NCBI GenBank assembly: GCA_963662545.2
Contig: CAXXLL010000002.1
Location: 864,001-928,000, forward strand
DNA length: 64,000 nucleotides
Direction: 5' to 3'
From: Gammaproteobacteria bacterium
GTDB lineage: Bacteria > Pseudomonadota > Gammaproteobacteria > Ga0077536
Both the position numbers and the translations under genes were made by a program. Under the pieces are notes generated by a model. It was not told the origin of the DNA, did no database searches, and saw nothing but the letters and a program-made list of their open reading frames with translations. Shown here piece by piece: positions 38,797-62,121 of the stretch; position 1 is the first letter of the stretch; every line of letters begins with the position of its first letter.

Positions 38797-39037
38797 GAGT
38801 TTATTTGCCACCGGGTGAGAAGCAAATTGTATTCTGCCGAGGATAAGGACGATACTATTTCGGCGGGGAAACACTAGAGCGGTTTGTCGCGGTAAACGAT
38901 TGGGCGGTGGCGTCGATCGCAACATCCGCGCAACCCGACTGCGTCGCGCGGGGTATTTTTAGCCCACTTTTTTTTAGTGCAGCGTCGATGTGAACCATGT
39001 TGTCGCGCGGTGATCGATGCCGTATGGAGAAAGGCGA

Positions 39038-40009
39038 TTGAAAATCTGCATCTATGGGGCTGGCGCGATCGGAGGTTATTTGGGCGCACGCCTGGCCTCG
39101 ACGGGTGCCGACGTCTCGCTCATCGCGCGTGGAGACCACCGTCAAGCGATACGTGATCGCGGCCTGCGAATCAGAACCGACGGCGGCGAAATCAACTGTT
39201 CCCTACCGTGCGTGGAAGCGCCCGAGGAGCTTGGCCCGCAGGACTTCGTCATCATGACCTTGAAGGCGCATTCAGTGCCGGCGATCGTCGAGCGCTTGCC
39301 CTGTTTGTTTCACGATACGACGGCGGTGGTTTCAGCCGTCAACGGTGTACCGTGGTGGTATTTCCATCGACTGGCCGGTTCCTACGAAGGACGCCGCGTC
39401 GACGCGGTTGACCCGGGCGGGAAGCAATGGGATTTGATCAGTCCGGCGCGCGCGATTGGATGCGTCGTTTATCCGTCCTGTGAAGTGATCGAACCGGGGC
39501 TGATCAAACACATTGAAGGCGATCGATTTACCCTGGGTGAGCCGTCGGGCGAGAAGACCGAGCGCGTCGAGGTGCTTGCAAAAGCCCTACGCGACGCCGG
39601 CTTGAAAGCCCCTGTCAAAAATCGAATACGCGACGAGCTCTGGATCAAATTATGGGGCAACCTGAGCTTCAATCCGATCAGCGCGCTCACAGGCGCAACG
39701 CTCGACGTCATTTGCCGCACGCCGGGCACGCGCGCCGTGGCACGCGCGATGATGCTCGAAGCGCAGGCCGTTGCGGAACGTCTCGGCGTTCGGTTTCCCA
39801 TCGACGTCGACCAACGTATCGCGGGCGCCGAGGCGGTCGGCAGCCACAAGACTTCGATGCTGCAAGATCTCGAACGCGGCCGACCACTCGAAATCGATGC
39901 GCTAGTTACGGCCGTGGTCGAACTCGGGCGTATGGTCGACCTGCCGACGCCCACGATTGAGACCGTACTCGCCCTGGTGGATCTGCGCGCTCATCGAGGC
40001 GCGTGCTGA
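39038..40009 (+). CDS. 2-dehydropantoate 2-reductase family (PanE2/oxalyl-CoA reductase-like)
   Basis: IYGAGAIGG, NGVPWWYF, WIKLWGNLSFNP and HKTSMLQDLE. TTG start after a GGAGA RBS. Confidence 0.88.
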   Translation: MKICIYGAGAIGGYLGARLASTGADVSLIARGDHRQAIRDRGLRIRTDGGEINCSLPCVEAPEELGPQDFVIMTLKAHSVPAIVERLPCLFHDTTAVVSAVNGVPWWYFHRLAGSYEGRRVDAVDPGGKQWDLISPARAIGCVVYPSCEVIEPGLIKHIEGDRFTLGEPSGEKTERVEVLAKALRDAGLKAPVKNRIRDELWIKLWGNLSFNPISALTGATLDVICRTPGTRAVARAMMLEAQAVAERLGVRFPIDVDQRIAGAEAVGSHKTSMLQDLERGRPLEIDALVTAVVELGRMVDLPTPTIETVLALVDLRAHRGAC

Positions 40010-40041
40010 CCGCGCCGCATCATCCTTATTGGTAAACACTG

Positions 40042-41268
40042 ATGGACACCATTCTTCGAAACGCACGCACCGACGACGAGCAGTTTGACGAGCTGATCGA
40101 TATCGGGATTAACGAAGGCAGGATCGCGGCGATCGAACCCAATTTGAGCGCGGCAGGGCAGGAATTCGATCTCGGTGGCCGGCTGGTGAGTAGCGGCTTC
40201 ATTGAATCGCATATTCATCTCGACAAATCGCGCATTCTCGGTCGCTGCAAATCCGAGAGAGGCGATCTGGAGGAAGCCATCGAGGAGGTGGCTAAGGCAA
40301 AAAAGGAGTTCACGCCGGAGGACGTCTACGATCGAGGAAGACAAACGCTCGAGGCGTGCATACTCAACGGCACCACACACATGCGAACCCAGCTCGAAGT
40401 CGATCCGGTCGTCGGCTTGCGCGGCCTGGAGGGCATAAGACCGCTGATCGACGAATATAAATGGGCTATCGATATCGAGATCTGTGTCTTTCCGCAGGAA
40501 GGTCTGCTGAACAACCCGGGCACCGACGAATTGTTGGTCGCGGCGCTCGAAAATGGCTGCAAGGTAATAGGTGCGGCGCCTTACACGGATTCAGATCCGC
40601 ATGGACAGATCGATCGGATATTCGAATTGGCGCGCCAATTCGACGTCGATATCGACATGCACCTCGACTTCGGGCCGGATCCGTCGGCGCTGGACCTCGA
40701 ATACGTGTGTAAATTGACCGACGAATTCGATTACGGTAGCCGGGTCGCGATCGGCCATGTGACGAAGCTTTCGGCTGTTCCTCCGATTCGTCTGCGCGAA
40801 ATTGCAAAACGCATGGCGGACTCCGGCGTCGCGCTGACCGTGCTGCCTTCCACCGATCTATTCCTCATGGGGCGGCACCAGGATCACGGCGTGATGCGCG
40901 GTGTTACCCCGGCCCATCATCTCCTGAAAGAGGGTGTGAATTGCTCCCTGTCGACGAATAACGTGTTGAACCCCTTCACGCCATTCGGTGATTGTTCGTT
41001 GCTTCGCATGGCCAACCTCTATGCCAATATTTGTCATGTAGGCACGCGTGAAGAAGTCATCGAATGTTTCCGGATGATCACGACCCGCTCTGCGGCATTA
41101 ATGCGGCTCGAAGATTATGGCATCGCCGAGGGTAAAGCTGCGGATCTGGTCGTTCTCGACTGCGAGAATCGCGCATCAGCCGTTGCCGAGCTGGTGCAGC
41201 CATTGTGGGGGTTCAAACGCGGCCGTCTCACATTTACGCGGGAAGCAGCGACCCTGCACCGGCCGTAA
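40042..41268 (+). CDS. amidohydrolase, cytosine/creatinine deaminase-like
   Basis: ESHIHLDK, FPQEG, DMHLD, IGH and STNNVLNPFTPFG. Confidence 0.88.
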   Translation: MDTILRNARTDDEQFDELIDIGINEGRIAAIEPNLSAAGQEFDLGGRLVSSGFIESHIHLDKSRILGRCKSERGDLEEAIEEVAKAKKEFTPEDVYDRGRQTLEACILNGTTHMRTQLEVDPVVGLRGLEGIRPLIDEYKWAIDIEICVFPQEGLLNNPGTDELLVAALENGCKVIGAAPYTDSDPHGQIDRIFELARQFDVDIDMHLDFGPDPSALDLEYVCKLTDEFDYGSRVAIGHVTKLSAVPPIRLREIAKRMADSGVALTVLPSTDLFLMGRHQDHGVMRGVTPAHHLLKEGVNCSLSTNNVLNPFTPFGDCSLLRMANLYANICHVGTREEVIECFRMITTRSAALMRLEDYGIAEGKAADLVVLDCENRASAVAELVQPLWGFKRGRLTFTREAATLHRP

Positions 41269-41297
41269 GCTGCACCGATTCTCCGCAACTTGAAAGC

Positions 41298-42503
41298 ATG
41301 ATTTCGAATGCCCGCAATATTCCGAACGATCCCTGCGGCGCTTTCTGTCGTGACAATCACGTTGCTCTCGGTCACACGGGTACGGGCGTGCTGGATGGTC
41401 TTACTTTTGCAGTCAAGGATGTTTTTCACATCGCGGGACACGCCACCGGTTTCGGCAATCCGGACTGGCTTGAAACCCACCCGCCCGAAGCGGTCACGGC
41501 GAGTACAATCAGTGCATTGTTGAGTGCTGGCGCGGATATGGTTGGTAGGACCTTGAGCGACGAATTGACCTACAGCCTGTCCGGCGAGAACTACCATTAT
41601 GGAACGCCGCTCAACACCTTTGCGCCCGACCGGATCCCCGGCGGATCTTCGAGCGGTTCGGCTGCGGCCGTCGCCGGCGGCCTGGTGGACTTCGCTCTCG
41701 GCACGGACTGCGGCGGCTCAGTGCGCCTGCCGGCGAGTTATTGCGGCATCTTAGGCTTCCGACCGACCCATGGACGGGTCGCCGTGGACGGCGTGATCCC
41801 ATTCGCGCCCTCGTTCGACGTAGTGGGGTGGTTTGCGCGGGACGCGGATAGTTTCGAACGCGTTGGCAGTGTCCTCTTCGACGAACCTCCTGTTGCGGCA
41901 ATCCCGCGACGGCTGTTTCTAGTCCAGGACGCTTTCGACGTGTTGCAACCCGGCGTACGCGATGCGCTCGAGCCATCTATTGACCGCCTCGCGGGGCTGA
42001 TCGGCGACAGGCAGGGTCGGACAATCACTGAGAAGGGGCTCGAAGCCTGGTTCGAAGTCTTCCGCGTCGTTCAGGGATCTGAGATCTGGTCCAATCGCAA
42101 GGCGTGGATCGAGGCAGTCAAGCCCACTATCGGTCCCGGGATTCGTGAGCGCCTGGAATGGGCTTCTTCGATCGACACTACTGCCGCTGCCGCCGCACGC
42201 GAAACCTTCGCCGGGATTCGGGATAGGCTCCGACAGCTGCTCGAACCGGGCGACCTTTTATGTCTGCCGACATCCCCGCGGGTCGCGCCGCGCAAAGGCG
42301 AGCCGCTCGACAAGCTCGAGGTCGAATACCGGGCTCAGGCTATGTGCCTGTTGTGTATCGCCGGGCTCGGCGGCCTGCCCCAGGTAAGCCTGCCCCTGGC
42401 CGAGCACGAGGGCCTGCCTATGGGCGTCTCAATCGTCGGGCCGCCCGGCGCGGACATGCAGCTTCTGGCCCTCGTGAAGACACTGCTTGATGGCAAGGCA
42501 TAG
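41298..42503 (+). CDS. amidase (amidase-signature family, short type)
   Basis: AVKD, PGGSSSGSAAAVA and GTDCGGSVRLPAS. Start set at ATG 41298. Confidence 0.9.
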   Translation: MISNARNIPNDPCGAFCRDNHVALGHTGTGVLDGLTFAVKDVFHIAGHATGFGNPDWLETHPPEAVTASTISALLSAGADMVGRTLSDELTYSLSGENYHYGTPLNTFAPDRIPGGSSSGSAAAVAGGLVDFALGTDCGGSVRLPASYCGILGFRPTHGRVAVDGVIPFAPSFDVVGWFARDADSFERVGSVLFDEPPVAAIPRRLFLVQDAFDVLQPGVRDALEPSIDRLAGLIGDRQGRTITEKGLEAWFEVFRVVQGSEIWSNRKAWIEAVKPTIGPGIRERLEWASSIDTTAAAAARETFAGIRDRLRQLLEPGDLLCLPTSPRVAPRKGEPLDKLEVEYRAQAMCLLCIAGLGGLPQVSLPLAEHEGLPMGVSIVGPPGADMQLLALVKTLLDGKA

Positions 42504-42760
42504 GGGTCGATTTCGGGCGCCCCGAGCGCGTTCGGCAAGCGCGCGTCGCCTTTTAGGTGGACACGAATTTCATTTATAGTTGCACACAAACCAAGGTCTG
42601 AAGGCGTCGTCGGTTTGAAGCTAGAGCGGTTACCCATGTGCGACTTGAGTCGTAAAGCCCGGGTCAGTTGAATAAGACGAGAAGAACAGAGTTCGACGAA
42701 CGATAGAAAACGTAAAGGCATCATCACCCACTGGCGATTAGATTCATTCGGAGCCGTTCC

Positions 42761-43543
42761 ATGGATTTCCAGAACATCATCGTAACGATCGATGACCCGA
42801 TTGCGACCCTGACGATCAATCGACCGCAGCGCCTGAATGCGCTGAACCCGCAGACGATGGAGGAAATCGAACGCGGTATCGGCGTGGTTCGCAGCAATGA
42901 CAACATTCGATGTTTGATCATTACCGGCGCCGGCGAAAAAGCCTTTATTGCAGGCGCCGACATTAACTCTCTTGTGACGATGTCGGCTTTTGACGAAAAG
43001 GAATTCGCCACCCACGGCCTGAGCGTGCTGCGCAGCTTCGAACACCTTCCGATCCCCGTCATCGCGGCCGTCAACGGCTATGCCCTGGGGGGCGGTACCG
43101 AACTCGCTCTGGCCTGCGATTTAATCCTGGCGTCGACGAACGCGAAGTTCGGGCTGCCCGAGATCAATCTCGGCGTCATCCCGGGATTTGGCGGTACCCA
43201 GCGGCTGGCACGCCGGATCGGGCTTCTACGGGCGCGGGAGATGGTCTACACGGGTGAAATGATCACGGCTGAAATGGCACTGAGCTATGGCCTCGTCAAT
43301 CATGTCTACACGCCGCAAGATCTCATGAACGAGGCGCAGGCGCTGGCTAGCAAGATCGCGGCTAAGGCGCCGCTCGCCATCCGACAGGCCAAGGTCGCAT
43401 TGAATACCGGAATCGAGATGGACCTGGACAACGGGCTTCGATTCGAAACCGAAGCGGTAGCCCTGGCATTTGCTACCAATGACAAGATAGAAGGCATGAC
43501 CGCATTCATCGAAAAACGCGAACCGGTCTTCAAGGGTGAGTGA
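42761..43543 (+). CDS. enoyl-CoA hydratase/isomerase
   Basis: AFIAGADI, ALGGGTEL and PEINLGVIPGFGGTQRL. Confidence 0.95.
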   Translation: MDFQNIIVTIDDPIATLTINRPQRLNALNPQTMEEIERGIGVVRSNDNIRCLIITGAGEKAFIAGADINSLVTMSAFDEKEFATHGLSVLRSFEHLPIPVIAAVNGYALGGGTELALACDLILASTNAKFGLPEINLGVIPGFGGTQRLARRIGLLRAREMVYTGEMITAEMALSYGLVNHVYTPQDLMNEAQALASKIAAKAPLAIRQAKVALNTGIEMDLDNGLRFETEAVALAFATNDKIEGMTAFIEKREPVFKGE

Positions 43544-48190: not shown

Positions 48191-48253
48191 ATTCGCCCGC
48201 AACCGGGCTCCTACGTTCGGGAGTTCTCCGTAGGAGTCCGCCGGCGGGCAAAT
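48191..48253. repeat. REP-like inverted doublet (GTAG family)
   Basis: 48191-48214 ATTCGCCCGCAACCGGGCTCCTAC and 48230-48253 GTAGGAGTCCGCCGGCGGGCAAAT, just downstream of the AraC gene. Confidence 0.75.
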
Positions 48254-48284: not shown

Positions 48285-49361
48285 CTAGCGGCGGTTTCGA
48301 TGCTGCGTGGGCGAAATGCCCGTCCACTCTTTGAACGCGCGCGAGAAGGTGTCGGCGTCCATGAAGCCGAGGTGAGAGGCGATTTCCCGCAGAATCAGAT
48401 CGGTGCGGTCGAGTAATTCCTGCGCTCGCTCGACCCGTACCTCCTTCAACACCGCTGAGTAACTGGTGTTTTCCGATTCGAGACGCCGCTGTAATGTGCG
48501 CTCCGTCAAGTACAGCGTAGCGGCGAGAACAGGCAGCGATGGGATTGGTGTCGCGCTTCTAAGACGACTCCTGACTATGTCCGCATAGTTAAGAGGTTTG
48601 AGCAGTACGTCATTTGTAGATCGACATTGACTCTCGAGGAAGCGATACGCCCTTGCATCGGCCTGCGGCGAGGCGGTATCCCATAGGTGTCTTGCGAACC
48701 GTATCTCGTTCGTCGCTGCACCGAACTCCACCGTGCATCCGAAGAAGGCGGCATAGGCATCCAGATCCGGCGGGAGCATATGCCGGAATCGGACGCACGT
48801 CGGTCGTAGCTGCGGCCCGAAAACACTATGCAATACGGCGAGTGTCACGGTGAGATCGCGTTCCATAAAAAACGGACCACAATCGCCGAGGCCGCTGATC
48901 TCTTCTAGCACGAGGATTTCTTCGGCGTCCTCACGCCACACCGAAAGCTCGACCGGTCCCCAGGCGAGTGACGGGTAGGAGAGCGTCGTGCGGAGAAATT
49001 CGCGCAAGTTAGGCGCCCGTGACGCGGCGAGCCCGACCACGCCGAATCTCGCGACATCGTAGCGCTGACCAACGACGAGGCCCGCGGCCGGAACTTTCAA
49101 ACGTTCCAATGCGCGGCGGGTGAACTTGATTTCCTGATCTACGTGGATGCGATAGCCCGGCTCCTCCAGAGCGAAGCGTGGGATCTCCGCATGAGCGAGA
49201 ATCGGTTCGACCGCATGGCCCTGCGCGTCCAGCAATTCGATGAGGGGCAGGAGCCCGTGGACCAGACGCTCGCTCGAGGGAGCGGGGCTGCCGAAGAGAT
49301 AGTCCGCCGCGTTGCGGGTCTGCCTGCGGCGCCTGGTGCGGTCTGTTGGTCGCGTCGTCAT
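48285..49361 (-). CDS. AraC family transcriptional regulator (N-terminal ligand-binding domain plus HTH)
   Basis: FFGCTVEFG, LTERTLQRRL, IASHLGF and FSRAFKEWTGISP. Confidence 0.92.
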   Translation of the reverse strand: MTTRPTDRTRRRRQTRNAADYLFGSPAPSSERLVHGLLPLIELLDAQGHAVEPILAHAEIPRFALEEPGYRIHVDQEIKFTRRALERLKVPAAGLVVGQRYDVARFGVVGLAASRAPNLREFLRTTLSYPSLAWGPVELSVWREDAEEILVLEEISGLGDCGPFFMERDLTVTLAVLHSVFGPQLRPTCVRFRHMLPPDLDAYAAFFGCTVEFGAATNEIRFARHLWDTASPQADARAYRFLESQCRSTNDVLLKPLNYADIVRSRLRSATPIPSLPVLAATLYLTERTLQRRLESENTSYSAVLKEVRVERAQELLDRTDLILREIASHLGFMDADTFSRAFKEWTGISPTQHRNRR

Positions 49362-49389
49362 TTCTCGGATTCGGGACCCGTTGTCGTTC

Positions 49390-51408
49390 TCAATGATTCG
49401 GATTTGCCGTGTACTTGTAGAGATCCTTCCAGTAATGGTCGAGCACGGCGTCGTCGGCGCAGCGCGTACATTCGAGTTCGGGATCGCTGACTTCGATAAG
49501 CCCCTTCTTGATCAGGGTTTCCGCGTAGGGGCCTCGGTCGATCAACTTGACGGGGCCGCGCTCTTCGGCGATTTCCTTTCTGAGTTTCTCAGTTGCGGTC
49601 ACGTCGACTTCATGGGTGTCCGGGTCCATGACGATGCCGTAGTGTTTTTCCGCGCTACCGATAGAGACCAGACGCCGGATAACGTCCATGCGCGCCAGTT
49701 CGATGTCGCGCTCCAGCGGATCGCCCCAACCGCCGCCGCCCGGTGTGGTCAAGCGGATCAAGTCGTTTGCTTTGACAGGTACGGCGTCCCGACTGAAGAA
49801 GACGTGCTCTTCATCGTCAGTGCCCGGGTTCCTGATCGACGAACCGGGCGCGCCCCAGCGGCCGCCCTTGATCCCGACACAGGCGAACGCCGTGCGCTCG
49901 GTCACCATGGTGTAGTGGCCGTCGACCAGCGTGCGCAACTCCTTGATGTAACCAAGACCGCCGCGGTACTTACCGGCGCCGCCGGAATCGATGGCAAGAC
50001 CGACCCTTTCGACCTTGACTGGAAAGCGCTGCTCGATGAATTCAGCGGGTAGATTCTTGGAATAAGGCACGAGGTCCACGGCATCGGTTCCGTCCGCATA
50101 GGGCCGCGCGCCAGAGCCCGCGCCGAAGATCTCGCGCATGAGGAACAAGTTTCCTTCGAAGTCCTCGCCGTAGAGTCCGTAGATCTGAATGGTCTGCATG
50201 TCGGCCACGACTTCGCCGTTAAAGGCCTTGGCCAGCGCCACCGTGTAACAACTGATCATGCGGAGCATGCAGGCCATGCGTGAGACGACGGGCGCCGGAA
50301 ACTCGGCGCTCAGCACCGTGCGTTTGGGAACGCGACAGCGAAAAACATCCGTCACCCCTTCATTGATAATGATGCCCGGGATCTGCGCCTTGAAGAAGGC
50401 GCCGAGCCATTTCGAGTAGTGCCTCCCGTCGAGCGCCCAGTTCACCGGCCCCTTCGCCTGCGGACTCGTACCCTCGAAATCGAGGATCATCTTGTGGGGG
50501 TACTTGCGCACGGTGATCTGCAACTTGACCGGCTTATCGAGGGTCAGTCCGTCGGACTCGACGAAATCTTCGCCGACGAATTCCCCCTCCGGGAAAAACG
50601 GCAAGCCCTTGTCGCGTACGACCTCGGCGCAGCGTTCGATGATTTCGTAGAAGGCCGCTTCGACCCTGTCGACGCCGAAACGCTCGCACAGTTCCACCAC
50701 GCGCCGGCGGATGATCTCGTTGGCGCCGACAAAGGCATCGATGTCGCCGCGCAGGTCGTCCGGGAAGCGGCTGTTGCGCAGCAGCACGTCGTAGAGGCCG
50801 TCGTTGAGTACGTCCTCGGCGTGCAGCTTCACGGGCGGGCAGATCGTGCCTTCCTCGAAGATGCTGGTCGACGTATTCGGCCAGGATCCGGCCATGCGGC
50901 CGCCGACGTCGTTTACGTGACCGAAGATCTGCGCAAACCCGATGAGGCGCGCTTCCCAGAAAATGGGCGTCACGACGCAATAGTCCGGCAGGTGCCCGAT
51001 GGTACCGGCCGATCCGAAGACATCGTTGTAAATGAACACATCACCTTCGCGGATCTCCTCGAGTGGAAACTTCATGCGGATGGGATCCGCCGTCGCCGCC
51101 CACGAGACGCGCGACACTGAGAGGCAATCTAGGGTGTTCAAGGACGCGCGGTAGTCATGCTGTTCGCGAATAATGGTCGAGCGCGCCGTGCGTTCGACTG
51201 CCGCTTCGGCTTCCATCACGGCGGCCTCGATGCCGCCGTCGACGATGTCGACGAGAATGGGATCGAGATCGACGCGCGCCTTGCGGATGCGTTCGACATC
51301 GGCCGATGTGGGCTCAACCGTTCCGTAGCGGAACGGCGCATAGTCCGCGAACGCGGCCTCTTCGTTTTCTTTCTCGTAATAACTGGGTGAAAACTCTTTT
51401 TCGGTCAT
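49390..51408 (-). CDS. hydantoinase B/oxoprolinase family subunit
   Basis: RSTIIRE, putative metal ligands in GHLPD and GHVNDVGG, SIFEEG, DSGGAGKYRGG and TPGGGGWGDP. Confidence 0.92.
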   Translation of the reverse strand: MTEKEFSPSYYEKENEEAAFADYAPFRYGTVEPTSADVERIRKARVDLDPILVDIVDGGIEAAVMEAEAAVERTARSTIIREQHDYRASLNTLDCLSVSRVSWAATADPIRMKFPLEEIREGDVFIYNDVFGSAGTIGHLPDYCVVTPIFWEARLIGFAQIFGHVNDVGGRMAGSWPNTSTSIFEEGTICPPVKLHAEDVLNDGLYDVLLRNSRFPDDLRGDIDAFVGANEIIRRRVVELCERFGVDRVEAAFYEIIERCAEVVRDKGLPFFPEGEFVGEDFVESDGLTLDKPVKLQITVRKYPHKMILDFEGTSPQAKGPVNWALDGRHYSKWLGAFFKAQIPGIIINEGVTDVFRCRVPKRTVLSAEFPAPVVSRMACMLRMISCYTVALAKAFNGEVVADMQTIQIYGLYGEDFEGNLFLMREIFGAGSGARPYADGTDAVDLVPYSKNLPAEFIEQRFPVKVERVGLAIDSGGAGKYRGGLGYIKELRTLVDGHYTMVTERTAFACVGIKGGRWGAPGSSIRNPGTDDEEHVFFSRDAVPVKANDLIRLTTPGGGGWGDPLERDIELARMDVIRRLVSIGSAEKHYGIVMDPDTHEVDVTATEKLRKEIAEERGPVKLIDRGPYAETLIKKGLIEVSDPELECTRCADDAVLDHYWKDLYKYTANPNH

Positions 51409-51464
51409 TTTAATCCTCGTGATTCATTCTCTACTACGAACTCATATCGCGCTGGCTGCAAACC

Positions 51465-53537
51465 TCAGGGATCCGTTTTACGAAGAACGAGCGTACCCCA
51501 CTCGTTCACCAGCCCGGCCCAACCGGGATTGACGACCGTGGTCGAATCGTACTGTTCGACGATGGCGGGTCCATTGATCTCGCTGCCGGCACCGAGTCCC
51601 GAGCGGTTGTACACGGGACATTTCAGCGTCCCGCCGCTCTGTGGGAAGAACACGTCCGTCTCTTGCTTTAGCGCCGCATCCGGGCGCGCGTCCGATCTTT
51701 CGAGCTCGGGGATCTGTGGGCGTTTCAGAAGGCCGAGCCCGGTGACGCCGACGTTGACCAGTTCGACGAGCTCAATTCCTTCGTAAGAATAGCCGTACAG
51801 ATCCCGGTGGCTGATATGAAAATCAGCGATCGATTGCTCCAGCGCTTCCCTCGGCAGGCTGCTGCCGCCCGTCCGGGCCAGGGGGATACGGATCTCGTAA
51901 GCCTGTCCGCCATAACGCATGTCGACGAAATGCCGCAACTCAATTCCCGCTCCTTCGAAACCTTCCTTGGTCAGGCGCTCTCTCACCTGAGATTCCAGCA
52001 CTTCGAGTTCGCCGGTGACCCGCTCCGGATCCAGCCGATCCTCACGTTGCACGTCGGTGTGGACGAGGTCGATGCGGACGTCGGTCAGGAGTAGGCCGTA
52101 TGCCGAAGTCACCCCGGGGCTAGGCGGAATAATGACGGTCTTCATGTCCAGCCAATCGGCGAGGTAACAGGCATGGAGCGGACCCGCGCCACCGAAGGCA
52201 ACGAGCGCATAATCGCGTGGGTCGCGGCCGCGCTTGACCGACACCGTGCGGATCCCGGCCGCCATATTTTCGATGGCGATGCGCAGGATGCCGTCGGCCG
52301 CCGCCGTCAAGGTGAGATCGAGTTCTTTGGCGATACTCGCGATCGCCTCTACCGCCTTGGCGCGGTTCAGTTGGATGCCGCCGCCCGCAAGTGACTCTGT
52401 GATGCGTCCGAGCACCAGGTTCGCATCGGTCACGGTCGGTTTGTCGCCGCCGCGGTCGTAGCACATCGGTCCGGGCTCGGCGCCGGCGCTGTCCGGCCCA
52501 ACCTTGAGGCTGCGCCCGCCCGCGAGCCATGCGATCGAACCACCGCCCGCGCCGATGGTGTGAATGTCGATCATCGCCGTTTTGACGTCGTAGATGTCCA
52601 CCCGGCCCTCGGTCAGCATGCGCGGTTCGCCGTCTTCGACCAGGCAGATGTCCGCCGAGGTGCCACCGACGTCGAAGCAGATGACATCCGGGTAACCACT
52701 CAGCTTGCCGAAGTGCGAAGCTGCGATAACGCCCGCCGCGGGACCCGAAAGCGCAGCGGCGATCGGCAGGCGCGAAATCTCTTCTGCCTGGGCCAGGCCG
52801 CCGCTCGATCGCATGATGTAGAACGGCACGTCGATATCCCGGCTTTTCAAATACTGTTCGAGCTTCTCATGATAGCTCGACAGGAGCGGCATCAGCGCGG
52901 TGTTCAGACAGGTCGTGTTGGTGCGTTCATACTCGCGATATTCACGGAGAATATCCGACGATATCGAGATGAAACATTCGGGATAGACTTCTTCGATGAT
53001 GCCGCGTATTTCCTGCTCTTGTACCGGATCGCGATAGGAATGCAGTAGCGACACGGCCACCGCGCTGATCCCGAGCGCCTTGAACTCTTGTGCTACACAG
53101 CGCACTTCGTCGGCGTCTACCGGTTGGTCGACGTGGCCCTCGACGTCGAGTCGCGCATTCACTTCGCGCACGAGTTCTAGTGGCACCACCCGTTCCGGTT
53201 TGATCCACCAGGTGATGTCGCCGAACTCACCCGGTACGGTTTGCCGCGCGACCTCCAGTGCTTCGCGGTACCCTTTGGTGATGATCAATCCGAGTTGAGA
53301 ATACTTGCGCTGCAGGATGGCGTTGGTGGCGACGGTCGTTCCGTGAAAGACGGCGGCGATGTCCGCCGGGGGAATACCCGCCTTTTCGGTGATGTGCTCG
53401 ATGCCGTTGATGAATCCGTTGGCGGGATCTTCTGGCGTGCTCGGTACCTTGGCGAGATGAAGCGTGCCGCTTGATTCCTCCAGCGCAACGATATCCGTGA
53501 AGGTGCCGCCGATGTCGACCGCAATGCGCCAACTCAT
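51465..53537 (-). CDS. hydantoinase A/oxoprolinase ATP-binding subunit (A2)
   Basis: DIGGTFTD, HGTTVATN, EYER, SGPAAG, DVGGTSAD, GAGGGS and FGGAGPLH. Confidence 0.93.
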   Translation of the reverse strand: MSWRIAVDIGGTFTDIVALEESSGTLHLAKVPSTPEDPANGFINGIEHITEKAGIPPADIAAVFHGTTVATNAILQRKYSQLGLIITKGYREALEVARQTVPGEFGDITWWIKPERVVPLELVREVNARLDVEGHVDQPVDADEVRCVAQEFKALGISAVAVSLLHSYRDPVQEQEIRGIIEEVYPECFISISSDILREYREYERTNTTCLNTALMPLLSSYHEKLEQYLKSRDIDVPFYIMRSSGGLAQAEEISRLPIAAALSGPAAGVIAASHFGKLSGYPDVICFDVGGTSADICLVEDGEPRMLTEGRVDIYDVKTAMIDIHTIGAGGGSIAWLAGGRSLKVGPDSAGAEPGPMCYDRGGDKPTVTDANLVLGRITESLAGGGIQLNRAKAVEAIASIAKELDLTLTAAADGILRIAIENMAAGIRTVSVKRGRDPRDYALVAFGGAGPLHACYLADWLDMKTVIIPPSPGVTSAYGLLLTDVRIDLVHTDVQREDRLDPERVTGELEVLESQVRERLTKEGFEGAGIELRHFVDMRYGGQAYEIRIPLARTGGSSLPREALEQSIADFHISHRDLYGYSYEGIELVELVNVGVTGLGLLKRPQIPELERSDARPDAALKQETDVFFPQSGGTLKCPVYNRSGLGAGSEINGPAIVEQYDSTTVVNPGWAGLVNEWGTLVLRKTDP

Positions 53538-53554
53538 CTATATCCCCTCCTGAC

Positions 53555-55594
53555 TTACCCGGGCCGCAGCATCATATTTCCGAACTCGTCGATTTCAGCG
53601 GTGAAATCGGGCGGTATGACGATCGTGGAATCGTATTGTTCAACGACTGCCGGCCCACGGATGGTATTGCCGGCTCCTAAACTGTCGCGGACGTACACCG
53701 GGCTGTCAATAAACGTCGGATGATCGAGATAGGCCACTTCGCGGTGGGCACGGGGTACAGGTTTTCGATCGGCCTTTGGGAGGCGGTTCAGGACGTCCGG
53801 CCTGGCGCGCTCGCCGATTGCCGTGGCGCGCAGATTGACGAGTTCCACCGTCTCCCGGCCCGCATAAGAATGACCGCTCAGCCGGTGAAACTGGTCGTGG
53901 AAGGCGTCGATCGCCTGCCGCAGCAAGGCTTCGGTAATCGGGCCGGGTGCGATTTCGACGGTGATCTCGTTCGACATGCCGGCGTAGCGCATATCGATGT
54001 GCCGCTGTACGCGCCGACGGATCTCCGGCACGCGTTCATCGGCCAGAAAGAGCAAGGCGGCGTCTTCGAGCGTAGCGAAGATCGCCTGCGCCCGCTCGAC
54101 ATCCAAGGCGTCTTCGTGCAGCCCGAAGGCCTGTACGAAATCGTCTTTGACGTCTGCCACCAGCAAGCCGAGCGCGGCGGCGAGTCCCGGCTGCGGCGGC
54201 ACCACGATCGTCCTCATGCCTAGCAGCACCGCGAGATCGGCTGCGTGCAGCGGTCCGGCGCCGCCCATCGCAAACAGCACATAGTCCTTGGGATCGTGGC
54301 CGCGCTGAACAGAGATCCGTCGGATCGCGCCGCACATGTTGTGGGTGGCGATCTCGAGAATGCCACGCGCGCAGCGCACGGCATCAAGGCCGCGACTTTG
54401 ACCGAATGACGCGAGCGCGGCGGCGGCGGCGTCCTTATTCAGCGGCAGGGAGCCGCCGAGCAGGGCCCCGGGAAGCCGTCCCAGTACGATCTGGGCGTCG
54501 GTGAGCGTAACGAGATCACCCCCGTGTCCGTAACACACCGGGCCGGGGTCCGCGCCCGCGCTCCCCGGCCCCACCCGCCAGCGCTCGTCGTTGCCCTGCG
54601 AAGCGATCGAGCCGCCGCCGGCGCCGATGGTAAGCACGTCGATCATCGGCGTCTTGAACGGAAATCCCGCGATCTCGCCGTAGGTCGTCAATGCGTACCG
54701 TCCGTGCTGCACCAGCGCCACGTCAGTCGAGGTACCGCCGATGTCGAGCGTAATGATATCTTCGTAGCCGATCCGGGCGCCGAGGCAGACCATGCCGACC
54801 ACCGCGGCGCTCGGTCCGGACAGGGCTGTCGTCAGCGGCTTTTTCATCGCGCGGCGCGCGCTCGCGAGTCCGCCTGAGGACTTCATGACCAGCAGCGGTG
54901 AACGCGCCAGCTCGCCCTCGTTCATGACGGATTCGATGTGGTCTTTCATCGCAGGCATCAGGCAGGCATTCAAACACGCGGCGAGGGTACGTTCGTATTC
55001 GCGGAGTTCAGGCAGCACCTCGGTTGACAGAACGACCTCGATGCGGGGCGCCGCGCGCGCAAAGACCGCCGCGACTTGTCGTTCCTGCGCAGGGTCGAGA
55101 TAGCTGTGCATCAGTGACACAACGACGATCGATATCGAGCGATCGCGGTACCATTCGGCAAGCGCTGCGACCTCCTGCTCGTCGACGGCCGCGCGCACCG
55201 AGCCGTCAGCGTTGAGCCGCGCCCCGATTTCGTTGACGAGTTCGAGTGAAACCAGCCGTTTTGCCAGCGGCTGCCGCGTCTCGTTCTCGTCACGCACCGG
55301 TAACGGCAGGCGGGCGGTTTCGAGAATTTCTCGAAACCCGCGGTTGACGATCAGCCCGATGGGCGGCAACGCGTGGGTGAGTAGTGAATTCAACGCGAGC
55401 GTCGTGCTGTAGAGGAGTTCTTGCGGCGCCCTGGAGGCGCTGCCTGCCGAGGCGATGGCGACCTCGACCGCGGACAGAAAGCATTGCGAGAGATCTCGGG
55501 GCCGCGTCGAGACCTTGTTTGTAGCGATCACGCCCCCGTCATCGACTGTAATGATGTCGGTGAAAGTACCGCCGATATCAATAGCGACCTTCAT
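53555..55594 (-). CDS. hydantoinase A/oxoprolinase ATP-binding subunit (A1)
   Basis: DIGGTFTD, YSTTLALN (variant of HGTT), EYER, SGPSAA, DIGGTSTD, GAGGGS and GGAGPLH. Confidence 0.92.
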   Translation of the reverse strand: MKVAIDIGGTFTDIITVDDGGVIATNKVSTRPRDLSQCFLSAVEVAIASAGSASRAPQELLYSTTLALNSLLTHALPPIGLIVNRGFREILETARLPLPVRDENETRQPLAKRLVSLELVNEIGARLNADGSVRAAVDEQEVAALAEWYRDRSISIVVVSLMHSYLDPAQERQVAAVFARAAPRIEVVLSTEVLPELREYERTLAACLNACLMPAMKDHIESVMNEGELARSPLLVMKSSGGLASARRAMKKPLTTALSGPSAAVVGMVCLGARIGYEDIITLDIGGTSTDVALVQHGRYALTTYGEIAGFPFKTPMIDVLTIGAGGGSIASQGNDERWRVGPGSAGADPGPVCYGHGGDLVTLTDAQIVLGRLPGALLGGSLPLNKDAAAAALASFGQSRGLDAVRCARGILEIATHNMCGAIRRISVQRGHDPKDYVLFAMGGAGPLHAADLAVLLGMRTIVVPPQPGLAAALGLLVADVKDDFVQAFGLHEDALDVERAQAIFATLEDAALLFLADERVPEIRRRVQRHIDMRYAGMSNEITVEIAPGPITEALLRQAIDAFHDQFHRLSGHSYAGRETVELVNLRATAIGERARPDVLNRLPKADRKPVPRAHREVAYLDHPTFIDSPVYVRDSLGAGNTIRGPAVVEQYDSTIVIPPDFTAEIDEFGNMMLRPG

Positions 55595-55621
55595 CGCCGA
55601 TAGGACTTATTCGGAGGTTTC

Positions 55622-56206
55622 TTATGTTTTGGCCTGCACTTGCATTTCGTCATGCGCGAATGAGAGGGGACACAGCTTGCCGACGCCTTCGAGTCCGACT
55701 GCGAACACCAAGCGTCCGTAGCCGATGAAGATCGCCATGCGCCACCCGAGCGCCATGATTTCAGGTTCGCTGAAATGCTCGCGCAATTCGTCGAACAAAT
55801 CATCGGAAACCTGCCGGTGATCCCGGGCCAGGGTATCGGCAAATCGCAGCGCCGCTTTCTCACGCGCCGAAAACAAGTCACTCTCGCGGTAATTTGGAAG
55901 CGCCTTAATCATCTCGTCAGTCAATCCTTGATGCCTCGCCGAGGCATACACGGCGCTCATTCAGAGATGACATTCATTGATCTGCGCGACCTTGTGGCGC
56001 ACGAGTTCGGTGAGCTTCACGCTGATGCCGTAGGCATCGGTCATGATGTGCGTGTAATAAAAGTCGACGAACGTCTTGTAGAGATCCGGCGTCTGGGCGA
56101 ACACCTGGATCCATTCCGATCCGCCGAGTGCTTCGTCGCTCTCCAGCATGGTTTTCTGCAGATCCGGGTCGACCTGCTCGAACGGTACTTTGTTGACGCG
56201 TAGCAT
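55622..56206 (-). CDS. AhpD/carboxymuconolactone-decarboxylase family protein, predicted selenoprotein (C79-x-x-U82)
   Basis: ORFs 55961-56251 and 55622-55960 are in the same frame and abut at a single TGA (55961-55963): ...ELVRHKVAQINECHL-U-MSAVY...FSAREKAALRFAD...LREHFSEPEI. GGAGG RBS before ATG 56206; 194 aa on read-through. Confidence 0.82.
55926..55953 (-). promoter_or_regulatory. candidate bacterial SECIS hairpin
   Basis: The mRNA after UGA reads AUGAGCGCCGUGU-AUGCCUC-GGC-GAGGCAU-CAAGG: a perfect 7-bp stem with a G-initiated apical loop 20 nt after the UGA, extendable past a bulged U. Confidence 0.65.
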
Positions 56207-56407
56207 CCCTTGTCCTCCGTCTTTATCGGCCATGGTTCCCTTATATACCAAGCTGTCTGTGTTTTGAAGGTGATGACTCGATGCGCTGCTACTGTTGCGC
56301 CACCACGCGTAGAGGCACGGCTACGCGGCGCTCATTTCACAAGCCGCTCTCCCTGGCGCGCGTACGGGCGGTGTCGTATTCTGGTTTTCGAACGAATGGG
56401 GGGATGA

Positions 56408-58018
56408 ATGATGGCGGCACGCGCGGAACGACGCAGTTTTTGGACCTGGGGTTACGTTTCCGACGAGCCGAGCGACGAGGAACGCGCGGCCGCCGCGAAG
56501 CGGCTCGCCGGCCGCCTCGGTCAACTGGTCACGCCGCCCCGTATTCCCCCGATCGAAGAAATCGAACTCACGCCGCCAAGAATCGACATTCCGAGTCGAT
56601 TCGACGGCTGGATATCGACCGATCACGCGGACCGCGTGACACACACTTACGGGGGGCACCCGGTCGAACTGCTGACCGCGATGCGCGGTGAGTTCGTCAG
56701 CCCGCCGGACGTCGTCGCGCATCCTCGCAGTGAAGATGAACTCGAAGCCACGCTCGAATGGTGCGACGGCCAGGGCTATATCGCGATTCCCTATGGAGGC
56801 GGCACCTCGGTCGTATGGGGTGTGAACGTCCCCGATGGATCAGACGGGGCGGTGACCATTGATCTCGACAATTTGAACGCCGTGCTCGAAGTTGATGAAG
56901 TGTCCCGCGCCGGGCGGTTTGAGGCAGGCATTCTCGGCCCGGATCTCGAAGCGGCGTTGAAGCCGCGCGGGCTGACCCTGCGGCACTTTCCGCAAAGCTT
57001 TCCATGGTCGACCGTCGGCGGCTGGGTCGCGACCCGTTCGGGCGGACATTACGCCACTAATCACACGCACATCGACGATTTCGTCGAATCGACCCGCATG
57101 CTGTCCCCCGCCGGCTGGTTCGAGACGCGACGGCTGCCCGGCAGCGGCGCGGGGCCGAGCCCGGATCGCCTGGTAATTGGATCGGAAGGCATACTGGGGA
57201 TCATCAGTGAGTGCTGGCTGCGCTTGCAGAAACGTCCCCTGTTTCGCGCCACGGCCGGCGTCACGTTTGGCACCTGGGAAGCCGGAACGACCGCTATGCG
57301 GCATATCGTGCAGGCGAAACTGTGGCCGGCCAACCTGCGGATCCTGGATCCGGTCGAAGCCGGTAACAACGCGGGCCTGGACGGCATCCAGTCACTGATC
57401 ATCATCGGTTTCGAATCGGCGGATGTGCCTCAGGGTTCTTACGTCAGGGAGGCGGTCGCGATCGCGCGCGAATTCGGCGGCATCATCGACGACGAGGAGA
57501 TCCGGGTCGACGATGGCAAGGGCAACACGACGGGGCGCGAGGGCGCGGTCGGCGCCTGGCGGAATGCCTTCATCGGCGTCAATGCGGGATTGACCGCCGG
57601 GCTCGGCCTGCTCGCCGATACCTTCGAGACGGCAGTCACCTGGGATAAGTGGCCGGAATTCGACGCCGTCGTGCGGGAACGCGTGGGTCGGGTACTCAAG
57701 GAAACGCTCGGCGACAGCGCGATGCTGTCGTGCCGGTTCACGCACGTCTACCCTGACGGGCCGGCGCCTTACTATTCCTTCAGCGGGGTCGTGCCGATCG
57801 GCGGTGAGCAGGAAGTGTGGCGCACCATCAAGGATGAGGCCACCGCGACTTTGGTGGACGCGGGCGGCACGGTGACCCACCATCACGCCGTTGGACGCTT
57901 GCACGCAGAAGCTTGGGCGAGACAGCGACCGGCACTATTCGGCGAAACCTTACGCGCGGTCAAACGCACGCTCGACCCCAACGGGATATTGAATCCGGGT
58001 GTTTTGCTCGAACCTTGA
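56408..58018 (+). CDS. FAD-binding oxidoreductase (alkyl-DHAP synthase-like)
   Basis: PYGGGTSVV, LRHFPQSF, GSEGILG, THVYPDG, THHHAVG and DPNGILNPG. Confidence 0.9.
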   Translation: MMAARAERRSFWTWGYVSDEPSDEERAAAAKRLAGRLGQLVTPPRIPPIEEIELTPPRIDIPSRFDGWISTDHADRVTHTYGGHPVELLTAMRGEFVSPPDVVAHPRSEDELEATLEWCDGQGYIAIPYGGGTSVVWGVNVPDGSDGAVTIDLDNLNAVLEVDEVSRAGRFEAGILGPDLEAALKPRGLTLRHFPQSFPWSTVGGWVATRSGGHYATNHTHIDDFVESTRMLSPAGWFETRRLPGSGAGPSPDRLVIGSEGILGIISECWLRLQKRPLFRATAGVTFGTWEAGTTAMRHIVQAKLWPANLRILDPVEAGNNAGLDGIQSLIIIGFESADVPQGSYVREAVAIAREFGGIIDDEEIRVDDGKGNTTGREGAVGAWRNAFIGVNAGLTAGLGLLADTFETAVTWDKWPEFDAVVRERVGRVLKETLGDSAMLSCRFTHVYPDGPAPYYSFSGVVPIGGEQEVWRTIKDEATATLVDAGGTVTHHHAVGRLHAEAWARQRPALFGETLRAVKRTLDPNGILNPGVLLEP

Positions 58019-60768: not shown

Positions 60769-62121
60769 CTGAAGGATCCCCACGAACTTACGCATAACGC
60801 AACGGGATTGAAGTAATTTGATGTAAGGCGATAATCGATTGCTTGATGTCCGCCAGCATAAGCTTTACGGGTTGCCTGCGAAAACTTTGCAAGCCCAGAA
60901 AGACGGTGGAGAGTACCGGCCGATGCCGGGTTGTATTCGCTTGGTAATGGCGCTGCAGCCCGAAACGCTGCATCGCTTGGCCGACTAACCAAGCGACTAA
61001 TGTTGCCAACGTACCAATCAGGACGAGGATCGAGAGCCGCTCGGCGCTGTTGGAACGCGCGCTGCGGAAGTGCAGTCCCAAACGGGCATTTTTCATATCC
61101 CGGAAACTCTCCTCAATTTGCATGCGCAACTGATAACACCGCATCACCTGCTGGGCCGCGCGCGACCCCAGTGAGGTGACCAATATCCAGGGTTCGCGCT
61201 GGCGTCGTTCACAGCTAAGGCTGCGGCCACCACGGGCACGCGTGCCGCGGCAGGTCAGTTGTTGACGGCCACGCTTTTTCTTCTTCACCAGGTACAGGTC
61301 ACAGGCCAATGGATTCGATACCGTTAGTTCGACTGTCCCGATATGCCGCACACGTAAGTTGGCCATCGCATGCAACGTCCGGCACGGTTGCCAGCTTGCC
61401 TGGTTGTCCAGCCGGAAATGGGTGCGCCCGCGGACCCGACCGACCCAGTCCCAACCCATCGCTTCGACCTGTCTAAACCAAGTCGTCCGGAAGCCGGCAT
61501 CCGTGACTAAGAGCGGGCGACACCCCGGTGGTAAGATCTCTCGAAGACGGTCTAGAAACCGTTTCCTGACACCCCGGTTGTCATACGCCGACAAGGGATG
61601 TACTTCTTCGTAGAGCGTCAGTGAACGGCCTCCCACCGGAACCGCCGCACGCAACAACTGCCATGACCGATCTTCGCGCATATCCGACCAGTCCAGAATA
61701 ATTACCGGACGTGGTCCTTGTCCAAGCACCAGCCCCGCCATCGCCCCATAGAGTTCCGTTCGTTCTCCCCACAGATGACGGTTGCCAATTAACCGGTCGA
61801 CTCGCTTGATGTTGTGTTTGACTCGCGCCCCCGACACCATGGCGCGACCAAGACCCGCCAAGCTCATCTGACGACCTACCAGCAGCGCCTCAACGCTCGC
61901 CATCAATGCCGTTAGTCTTACCACGTGTATCTGCGGACAGGCTTGCGCCATCATTTTGTGCAACAATCTCAGTGCATGCATGGCGTTCTCCCGTGACCAA
62001 TTTGGTTTCGTCACCGTTATTGATCACCGAACGTCATGCATGTTCCCTATTGTTCGTTATTTATTTTCCTAAGTGGCTATTTCCCATTCGTTTTTTTGTT
62101 GTATTCATGGGGAGCCTTCAG
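60769..62121 (-). mobile_element. IS4-family (IS10-like) insertion sequence, 1353 bp, 9-bp target duplication
   Basis: CTGAAGGATCCCCACGAA matches the reverse complement of TTCATGGGGAGCCTTCAG at 16/18 nt. GGACAGATT is duplicated at 60760-60768 and 62122-62130. Confidence 0.93.
60788..61981 (-). CDS. IS4-family transposase
   Basis: IILDWSD, VTDAGF and the IS4 YREK signature YQLRMQIEESFRDMK. Start set at ATG 61981. Confidence 0.93.
   Translation of the reverse strand: MHALRLLHKMMAQACPQIHVVRLTALMASVEALLVGRQMSLAGLGRAMVSGARVKHNIKRVDRLIGNRHLWGERTELYGAMAGLVLGQGPRPVIILDWSDMREDRSWQLLRAAVPVGGRSLTLYEEVHPLSAYDNRGVRKRFLDRLREILPPGCRPLLVTDAGFRTTWFRQVEAMGWDWVGRVRGRTHFRLDNQASWQPCRTLHAMANLRVRHIGTVELTVSNPLACDLYLVKKKKRGRQQLTCRGTRARGGRSLSCERRQREPWILVTSLGSRAAQQVMRCYQLRMQIEESFRDMKNARLGLHFRSARSNSAERLSILVLIGTLATLVAWLVGQAMQRFGLQRHYQANTTRHRPVLSTVFLGLQSFRRQPVKLMLADIKQSIIALHQITSIPLRYA

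Follow-up and report, generated by a model that had tools for sequence, protein, structure and literature searches.

The window, a 64,000-nt stretch of a gammaproteobacterial contig, contains five co-oriented ORFs on its minus strand, whose spacers of 27, 17, 56, and 28 nt agree with the preliminary description made from the same DNA. These are a CMD/AhpD-like selenoprotein gene (55622-56206; 194 codons, identified by translation and Pfam CMD, PF02627), hyuA1 (53555-55594; 679 aa), hyuA2 (51465-53537; 690 aa), hyuB (49390-51408; 672 aa, Pfam Hydantoinase_B, PF02538), and the gene of an AraC-family regulator (48285-49361; 358 aa) located 28 nt downstream of hyuB. Both A subunits were matched by Pfam Hydant_A_N, Hydantoinase_A, and Hydant_A_C. 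Purifying selection was detected on all five genes when the window was compared with its near-identical relative L003. A GGAGGA box lies 6-7 nt ahead of the selenoprotein ATG at 56206, and a 201-nt intergenic region (56207-56407) separates this gene from a divergent FAD-linked oxidase gene on the plus strand (56408-58018). This region is presumed to be the promoter region of the operon; a sigma-70 scan of it gave no promoter-like site, so that its promoter role is one that we infer. The regulator matched Pfam Arabinose_bd, HTH_18, and HTH_AraC above their cut-offs, and exhibits the AraC/XylS features of a C-terminal double helix-turn-helix and an N-terminal ligand domain. Its top NCBIfam model was QhpR (150 bits, cut-off 250), and among related loci an araC gene stands beside the module only in the window and in L003. 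After araC, a REP-like palindrome (~48191-48253, minus strand) was recognized by its folding energy of -38.1 kcal/mol and its genome copies, as 4 genome loci carry the core arms CTCCTACG ... CGTAGGAG (8 strand-wise matches). The REP doublet described earlier is partly borne out, the element being one long imperfect palindrome. No T-run directly follows it, and a terminator scan gave no match there, its two matches being located elsewhere on the plus strand.

The ORF at 55622-55960 extends upstream through a TGA (55961-55963) to the ATG at 56206, and this TGA is the predicted Sec codon of the motif C-H-L-U. The product scored 44.9 bits for PF02627 (cut-off 23), and in alignments with PDB 2ijc and 7xw1 its TGA falls on the second Cys of their CxxC. 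Of 66 parsed homologues, 65 have this codon at the Sec site and one has TGC. A SECIS-like hairpin (55931-55947, minus strand), composed of a 7-bp stem and the loop GGC, begins 13 nt after the TGA. In 43 distinct sequences, 5 of its 7 pairs changed on both sides and 91.7% of the cells were paired; this covariation score was reached by 0 of 500 shuffles, and slid controls gave 0-1 covarying pairs. As the lone fold of a 76-nt stretch, the hairpin is unexceptional (z = -1.29). The tRNA-Sec, SelA, SelB, and SelD are all encoded in the genome. The TGA alignment and its retention among homologues, together with the covarying hairpin and the Sec machinery, indicate that the first gene is, as predicted from these features, a genuine CxxU selenoprotein of an AhpD-like family, in line with the redox selenoprotein that had been placed first in the operon. 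Its dN/dS was 0.085 against L003, and an extra conserved Cys is present near the C-terminus (residue 179). No specific NCBIfam model fits this protein, the best being the YciW-related (seleno)protein model (76.7 bits, cut-off 310). It adds a well-supported AhpD-like CxxU subfamily of more than 60 loci that share the covarying hairpin.

HyuA2 possesses the motifs DxGGTFTD, DxGGTS, and GAxPGP, which are conserved in its orthologue group, and its best scores were obtained for 7hk5 (477 bits) and CapA (389 bits). It evolves at a dN/dS of 0.03-0.11 and is recognized as the presumptive canonical alpha subunit paired with HyuB. For HyuB, the Hydantoinase_B domain spans residues 49-564 of 672, which indicates that the terminal extensions noticed earlier (approximately 44 aa at the N-terminus and 60-100 aa at the C-terminus) are real. 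Across 19 sequences, residues D85, H139, D142, and H164 do not vary, and they align with Asp41, His99, Asp102, and His124 of CapB, which are metal ligands (PMC8453981). A C-terminal ECxxC of HyuB was also considered as a redox or zinc site and was dropped, since both Cys are unconserved among the type I sequences, that is, those of loci having an orthologous HyuB. Among solved structures, N-methylhydantoinase and caprolactamase gave the best scores for all three Hyu proteins and the carboxylases the worst. With A1, A2, and B in that order, the scores in bits were 413, 477, and 213 with 7hk5; 352, 389, and 176 with 6yra; 267, 305, and 126 with the Apc (acetophenone carboxylase) chains of 5l9w; and 192, 230, and 47 with the acetone carboxylase 5m45. 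These scores and the conserved metal tetrad suggest, in the best explanation of the sequences, that HyuA2 and HyuB are the putative alpha and beta subunits of an ATP-dependent amidohydrolase that opens rings and belongs to the Hyd (hydantoinase/oxoprolinase/caprolactamase) branch. The preliminary description had offered a carboxylase or a lactam hydrolase; the hydrolase side is favored by these scores, and the carboxylase side is weakened. The CapA equivalog model gave 441 and 543 bits and the CapB model 191 bits, all against cut-offs of 1000 (NCBIfam), so that by these models the enzyme is not caprolactamase proper. Hyd criteria include a two-gene cluster and a beta subunit of approximately 570-580 aa (PMC5214803 section 7). 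The window departs from both by a third A-type gene, found in 29 of 30 loci, and by a 672-aa HyuB, while it agrees in that an alpha gene with ATP motifs (hyuA2) is directly followed by the beta gene, 56 nt apart.

HyuA1 retains the ATP motifs DIGGTFTD, DIGGTSTD, and GADPGP, and such motifs persist in each of the three A groups (A1, A2, and the single A of the type II loci), so that HyuA1 would still be able to bind ATP. It has YSTT at the place where A2 has HGTT, as was noticed earlier; CapA deviates as well, having NGTT there in the alignment, which indicates that not all members of the family have the His of HGTT. A1 has lost segments that beta-partnered A subunits keep invariant. In a FastTree tree of 77 A subunits, A1 is a separate clade (100% support), and the single A of the type II loci is the sister group of A2, also with 100% support; the A1 and A2 trees exhibit matching groupings. 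The dN/dS of A1 (0.05-0.35) is well below 1, although A1 is 2-7 times less constrained than A2, and orthologues share only 36-54% identity for A1 where they share 66-78% for A2. A1 is, as read from the tree and rates, an old, co-inherited, faster-evolving paralogue that is under purifying selection.

The two-A-plus-one-B layout pointed out earlier proved to be no chance arrangement, since A1 is present in 29 of the 30 assessable type I loci (five more were too short to judge). These loci belong to one gammaproteobacterial family and to Binatia, and thus to two phyla. Wherever the length of a locus allows it to be seen, hyuA2 and hyuB are adjacent, while A1 is separated from A2 by an opposite-strand AMP-ligase gene in L118, L120, L215, L216, L219, and L222, and by a metallophosphoesterase gene in L254. 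The type II loci, which have a single A, and L258 are devoid of A1. In the window's family, the usual upstream partners are a CoA-transferase and an amidase-signature amidase, the latter adjoining the module in 21 of the 25 loci of the family that lie outside the genus; the window's genome encodes a 73% orthologue of this amidase on another contig, and the same orthologue accompanies the type II loci. This usual position behind the CoA-transferase and amidase genes points to a role of the module in cyclic amide or imide catabolism, in which the product may undergo further de-amidation and be processed as a CoA ester. A literature search on hydantoinase A/B together with an amidase and a CoA-transferase turned up nothing but a true Apc cluster, one that has gamma. 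The patterns of a metagenome scan with the HyuB alignment were too generic; of its 80 loci, no more than 6 came from close relatives, mostly as short pieces. Taken together, the window probably holds a conserved hyuA1...hyuA2-hyuB module of a Hyd-branch ring-opening amidohydrolase in a rearranged copy that is specific to the genus, to which the selenoprotein is a neighbour and not a subunit. HyuA2 would spend ATP to activate a cyclic amide, by analogy with caprolactamase, and the activated intermediate would then be hydrolysed at the predicted HyuB metal site (D85/H139/D142/H164). In the window's genus, the upstream amidase/CoA-transferase part would have been replaced by the selenoprotein gene, and the araC gene added downstream.

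Within this module, A1 is most likely an accessory second nucleotide-dependent subunit, which would resemble Apc alpha-prime without being an orthologue of it. More speculatively, A1 might give a second nucleotide-dependent site, possibly for bicarbonate activation, that arose independently of Apc alpha-prime, was kept in two phyla, and in the window's genus also came under the redox influence of the co-transcribed selenoprotein; caprolactamase activity is reported to require bicarbonate (PMC8453981). Alternatively, HyuA1 may stand outside the A2-B enzyme as a separate ATP-dependent enzyme or a regulator of the same pathway, as could be expected from the genes intervening between A1 and A2 in several loci, the 2-7 times weaker constraint on A1, and the type II loci and L258, which manage without it. 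We regard this as unlikely, because A1 is co-inherited with A2-B across two phyla with matching tree groupings, and no HyuA-type protein is known to act without a B partner.

A further alternative is that HyuA1-A2-B forms a gamma-less Apc-like carboxylase, in which A2 phosphorylates the substrate, A1 activates bicarbonate, and B joins both. Two A subunits with ATP motifs, comparable to Apc alpha/alpha-prime (PMC5214803), are consistent with this, as are the loss from A1 of segments conserved in beta-partnered A subunits, which alpha-prime also exhibits, and the Apc-beta-like length of HyuB with its terminal extensions. The scores, however, were far under the NCBIfam cut-offs for ApcA (159 and 195 bits, cut-off 1250), ApcC (274 and 306 bits, cut-off 1500), and ApcD (130 bits, cut-off 1500). 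The A1 subunit is no closer than A2 to ApcA, so that the A duplication in the window looks independent of that in Apc, as far as the sequences tell. The Apc cluster is ordered alpha-prime, gamma, alpha, beta, with the small four-Cys gamma (PF08882) inside, while no gamma gene is present within the operon, whose gaps are at most 56 nt, nor does its gene content include a gene of ~30 kDa, the size of the detachable epsilon on which Apc activity depends. The absence of gamma from the 2A+1B operon had been noted before and holds here; the five PF08882 genes of the genome are located at least 85 kb away, and every one of them is accompanied by A and B genes of its own. A true apcABCD-ordered cluster was found elsewhere in the same genome, and the order in the window differs from it. 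Furthermore, the single-A type II loci share the amidase orthologue, which suggests the same chemistry without A1. A carboxylase is hence considered decidedly improbable, and the ring-opening amidohydrolase is retained.

The preliminary description also coupled the selenoprotein to HyuAAB through a Sec/Cys redox step, which the gene neighbourhoods do not support. The order AhpD-hyuA-hyuA-hyuB is not conserved: hyuAAB was found within 10 kb of an AhpD homologue in 1 of 72 loci, namely L003, and the AhpD gene is non-syntenic with hyuAAB elsewhere, which speaks against that coupling. These gene-order counts exclude closer relatives with protein matches of 69-70% for A1, 87-88% for HyuB, and 78% for an AhpD fragment. 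Among 35 loci with orthologous HyuB, only the window and L003 have a CMD gene, and none of the type I loci from other genera has one in the searches, including a six-frame CMD profile scan, which in 52 HyuB-centred loci gave matches only in the window, L003, L122, and L228. In L122, a CMD selenoprotein (C-H-Y-U) that is only 32% identical heads a BVMO-hyuA-hyuB operon, giving two independent CMD-hyu adjacencies among ~55 loci. In all five Binatia chromosomes, the orthologues of AhpD (81%) and HyuB (80-83%) are 1.6-3.7 Mb apart, and elsewhere AhpD has varied neighbours, including S9 peptidase, DsbA, AMP-ligase, beta-lactamase-fold, and PQQ dehydrogenase genes. The selenoprotein is probably a general thiol/selenol redox protein found in many unrelated gene contexts. 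The 27-nt gap suggests that its gene is probably co-transcribed with hyuA1 in this genome, which leaves room for a local functional link. Logan contigs gave identical pieces at 55909-56073 (across the TGA, run X1) and 49541-49688 (run X8), for which DNA carry-over is possible; the other pieces were mostly 30-40-nt conserved motifs from other organisms, and no Logan contig bridges two operon genes. Within the literature library searched, no paper joining hydantoinases with CMD/AhpD (alkylhydroperoxidase) selenoproteins was found. A dedicated role of the selenoprotein as redox partner of HyuA1-A2-B, which would make the five genes one undescribed system, is very improbable despite their tight packing and co-orientation, the arrangement kept in L003 with purifying selection on its genes, and the L122 operon, given the single adjacency in 72 loci, the type I loci lacking CMD, the megabase separations in Binatia, and mechanisms of Hyd, Acx, and Apc that contain no thiol redox step as published (PMC5214803, PMC8453981). 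The selenoprotein is thus not supported as a subunit or partner and is better described as a lineage-specific neighbour of the Hyu module. This result is mainly a correction of the record, and it provides no support for the idea of a new redox-coupled enzyme system.

Very stable lactams and imides are opened by enzymes of the ATP-dependent hydantoinase/oxoprolinase family, which has drawn interest for biocatalysis with nylon monomers and lactams. In the literature covered, the hydrolases are built from two large subunits, and the carboxylases from A, B, and gamma, plus alpha-prime in Apc; Hyd-type clusters are described only as hydAB (section 7 of PMC5214803; PMC13677872). Among these layouts, a conserved two-A-plus-one-B version of an ATP-dependent ring-opening amidase is undescribed, and without gamma it would represent a further architecture in the family. 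The module would also serve as a natural experiment on the contribution of a second ATP-binding subunit, for which a ready comparison is available because sister loci have one A with the same amidase partner.

Regarding known systems, the selenoprotein shares the CMD fold, Sec in place of the second Cys of CxxC, and a downstream hairpin with the AhpD-like selenoproteins, of which the AhpD-like 1 (COG2128) and AhpD-like 2 (PF02627) CxxU groups are tabulated in PMC2398784 from the Sargasso Sea and GOS surveys with a wide environmental distribution. It differs from them by the conserved extra Cys at the C-terminus, and the His of the AhpD core CxxCxxxH is replaced by Val (C-H-L-U-M-S-A-V, compared with C-A-Y-C-V-N-M-H in 2ijc). 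Apc, (alpha alpha-prime beta gamma)2 in 5l9w, combines two ATP-binding A-type subunits with one B-type subunit as in the window; both alpha-prime and A1 are without features conserved in the beta-contacting A, and the HyuB length (672 aa) is closer to Apc beta than to a typical Hyd beta (PMC5214803 section 7). The window differs from Apc in having no gamma (PF08882) or epsilon gene, another gene order, and low similarity. CapAB (6yra) and N-methylhydantoinase (7hk5/9h03) share with the window a three-domain A subunit with PHOSPHATE 1, PHOSPHATE 2, and ADENOSINE motifs, the B subunit's tetrad (Asp-His-Asp-His), and the A-then-B gene order. Compared with CapAB, the window possesses an additional divergent A-type gene and a HyuB that is ~90 aa longer than CapB owing to its N- and C-terminal extensions.

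Open reading frames and Pfam profiles confirmed that five co-oriented genes lie on the minus strand of the window, separated by gaps of 27, 17, 56, and 28 nt. The first encodes an AhpD/CMD selenoprotein (55622–56206; Pfam CMD), which is read through a TGA at 55961–55963. This is followed by HyuA1 (A1; 53555–55594, 679 aa) and HyuA2 (A2; 51465–53537, 690 aa), both composed of Hydant_A_N, Hydantoinase_A, and Hydant_A_C, and by HyuB (49390–51408, 672 aa), in which Hydantoinase_B covers residues 49–564 only. The last gene encodes a 358-aa AraC protein (48285–49361; Arabinose_bd and HTH_18), likely the local regulator. A long imperfect palindrome (about 48191–48253) that folds at −38 kcal/mol was located downstream of araC, and its core arms occur at four loci of the genome; it is one element, for which the name "REP doublet" in the preliminary description was generous. 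The replacement of HGTT, present in HyuA2, by YSTT in HyuA1 is real, and the His of this motif is not universal because the caprolactamase subunit CapA has NGTT at that place. Upstream of the selenoprotein gene, at a distance of 4.6 kb, is a DDE transposase gene (60788–62014, minus strand), in keeping with local rearrangement of the operon.

The arrangement of two A genes and one B gene was examined in the window's GTDB family, whose 81 genomes make up its whole order. HyuB matches at E ≤ 1e-200 were obtained in 48 of the 81 genomes, and matches were classed as type I (about 79–96% identity) or type II (about 59–62%). A second, divergent A gene was found upstream of hyuA2-hyuB in 29 of the 30 assessable type I loci, namely the window, its near-identical congeneric relative L003, L114–L120, 16 of L208–L225, and four of five Binatia loci; L258 is the sole miss, and five further type I loci (L128–L130, L221, and L223) are too short to judge. 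Among type I family loci outside the window's genus, an amidase-signature amidase gene is located upstream of A1 in 21 of 25 cases, with a family III CoA-transferase gene usually ahead of it, and three of the four loci lacking this amidase are contig ends. In some type I loci, A1 and A2 are separated by an acyl-CoA ligase gene on the opposite strand, and hyuB is followed by an SDR gene. The Binatia module is ordered as luciferase-like monooxygenase, A1, calcineurin-like metallophosphoesterase, A2, and B (L254:3234–12040, also L255–L257); a phosphoesterase within an operon for an enzyme making phosphorylated intermediates is curious. Type II loci (n = 20) consist of a single A gene and HyuB, and an orthologue of the type I amidase (65–68% identity) is nearby in nine of them. 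The window's genome holds a 73% orthologue of this amidase on another contig; the placement of AhpD before and AraC after the hyu genes thus arose by rearrangement of an older module at the level of the genus. A second amide- and CoA-handling gene set, composed of acyl-CoA synthetase-like, ketopantoate-reductase-like, amidohydrolase, amidase, and enoyl-CoA hydratase genes, is found 5–12 kb beyond araC (36796–43543), and has no orthology to the amidase/CoA-transferase genes present at the related loci.

The leading gene encodes a genuine CxxU selenoprotein, as had been claimed. In alignments with CMD proteins of solved structure, its TGA falls precisely on the second Cys of CxxC (QINECHLU in the window versus QINGCAYC in 2ijc). 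When one genome per species was scanned, 72 AhpD loci were obtained, mostly from metagenome-assembled genomes labelled Candidatus Binatia or Gammaproteobacteria, and the codon at the Sec site was TGA in 65 of the 66 parsed loci and TGC in one. A protein search gave two full-length Cys forms and about 40 clusters of 106–135 residues that start at the Met directly after the TGA, which are truncated gene calls. A hairpin (7-bp stem, GGC loop) begins 13 nt after the TGA, and both sides are changed in five of its seven pairs among 43 distinct sequences, for example from GCCTC/GAGGC to GCCTT/AAGGC, where the 3′ change is synonymous (GCG to GCA). This covariation score was reached by none of 500 shuffles, and slid controls gave 0–1 covarying pairs. 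The genome also encodes tRNA-Sec, SelA, SelB, and SelD. An identical 165-nt metatranscriptome contig (run X1), which may be RNA or carried-over DNA, spans the TGA at 55909–56073. The family is multi-copy, with two or three paralogues each in the window's genome (including C3:2091547–2092095) and in three other genomes, G401, G402, and G412, whose seven copies have one in-frame TGA each. Since AhpD-like CxxU families already appear in the selenoproteome tables of the Sargasso and GOS surveys (PMC2398784), the window's selenoprotein belongs to a known kind. It departs from these proteins, however, in lacking the His of CxxCxxxH and in having an extra, nearly invariant Cys near the C-terminus.

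The preliminary description had further joined this selenoprotein, both HyuA proteins, HyuB, and AraC into one undescribed redox-coupled system. HyuA, HyuA, HyuB, and AraC genes were found downstream of AhpD in only one of the 72 loci, L003, which belongs to the window's genus and whose AhpD is 96% identical to that of the window; the only further case is a weak 23% HyuB-family match on the opposite strand at L039. The preliminary description had itself named absence of this synteny from other genomes as grounds for refutation, and AhpD is not syntenic with hyuAAB in these loci outside the window's genus; the proposed coupling is not supported. None of the window's other neighbour genes recurs around the AhpD homologues, and the neighbours at twelve annotated loci are highly varied, including S9 peptidase with DsbA, Rieske oxygenase with AMP-ligase, β-lactamase-fold hydrolases, PQQ dehydrogenase, and Leu/Phe-tRNA transferase. 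When six-frame translations of 52 HyuB-centred loci were searched with the CMD profile, matches were obtained only in the window, L003, L122, and L228. All five Binatia chromosomes with an 81% AhpD orthologue carry an 80–83% HyuB orthologue 1.6–3.7 Mb away. The window's AhpD is about 82% identical to the Binatia copies versus 69% and 56% to copies in its own taxonomic family, which fits a mobile gene. Two caveats remain against dismissing a link between AhpD and hyuAAB. One is that a different CMD selenoprotein (SQINSCHY-TGA-LPTH; C-H-Y-U, 32% identical to that of the window) heads a co-oriented hyu operon at L122:3406–9745, followed by a Baeyer–Villiger-type (BVMO-like) flavin monooxygenase, a single HyuA, and a HyuB of type II. 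The other is that the protein collection contains closer relatives of the window's operon (HyuB 87–88%, A1 69–70%, AhpD fragment 78%), beyond the loci whose gene order was compared. The selenoprotein, probably co-transcribed in the window's operon, is most likely a general redox or peroxide-handling protein.

Whether one hyuA is a recent duplicate had also been raised. In a midpoint-rooted FastTree tree of 77 A subunits, A1 forms a single clade (support 100), and the A2 clade is sister to that of type II A (support 100). The locus groupings match between the A1 and A2 subtrees, with A1 branches several times longer. This pattern indicates that A1 is not a recent duplicate of A2. The dN/dS values of nine close pairs (Nei–Gojobori) were 0.05–0.35 for A1, 0.03–0.11 for A2, and 0.016–0.08 for B; A1 is under purifying selection, weaker than that on A2 and B. 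Across its orthologues, A1 retains PHOSPHATE 1, PHOSPHATE 2, and ADENOSINE, the three ASKHA signatures that the acetophenone carboxylase (Apc) structure paper names (PMC5214803). The segments TVPGEFGDITWW.KP and SISSDILREY are invariant in A2 and type II A but not conserved in A1, and TVPGEFGDITWW.KP sits where CapA has a charged loop at the tunnel entrance. This loss recalls Apc α′, whose β-interface segments deviate and which touches only α (PMC5214803 sections 4 and 7), although A1 is not its orthologue (ApcA model, 159 bits for A1 versus 195 for A2).

From homology and conserved residues, A2-B most likely works like a caprolactamase or hydantoinase, in which a cyclic amide would be activated ATP-dependently in A2 and then hydrolysed at the HyuB metal site; A1 may add a second nucleotide-dependent function. 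The neighbouring amidase, CoA-transferase, CoA-ligase, enoyl-CoA hydratase, and SDR genes suggest that the ring-opened amide is de-amidated and then processed as a CoA ester.

The 2A+1B layout of the preliminary description stands as a conserved unit lacking γ, and coupling of the selenoprotein to it is not supported. No gene within the operon fits a γ subunit, and each of the five PF08882 (Acetone_carb_G) genes of the genome has A and B genes of its own beside it; one of the five lies in an apcABCD-order cluster (A-prime, γ, A, B; C3:747542–754023). In total, the genome encodes about 22 paralogues each of HyuA and HyuB, an unusually large family expansion. Three HyuA-HyuB pairs are nearly identical (C1:9311–11365, C2:1046170–1050100, and C3:2669050–2672980; branch lengths 0–0.013), one of them on the 17.6-kb contig C1, which points to either recent repetition of the segment or a collapsed repeat. 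Our literature search found no description of a two-A, one-B layout without γ; the layout is new within a known enzyme family and merits biochemical study. A recent paper (PMC13677872) treats large-subunit homologues outside acetone carboxylase (Acx) and Apc as "tetrameric proteins". Scores for A1, A2, and B were 413, 477, and 213 bits with fused N-methylhydantoinase (7hk5), 352, 389, and 176 with caprolactamase (6yra), 267, 305, and 126 with Apc α/β (5l9w), and 192, 230, and 47 with Acx (5m45). NCBIfam equivalogs gave the same ranking, with none reaching its cut-off. The HyuB metal tetrad Asp-His-Asp-His (D85, H139, D142, and H164) shows no variation among 19 sequences and matches the CapB ligands in alignment. 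Published criteria separate the hydantoinase/oxoprolinase/caprolactamase branch, Acx, and Apc by gene order, by position in the tree, and by the length of the subunits (PMC5214803 section 7). The module resembles the hydantoinase branch in gene order and similarity, whereas its HyuB length (672 aa) and extra A subunit are Apc-like.
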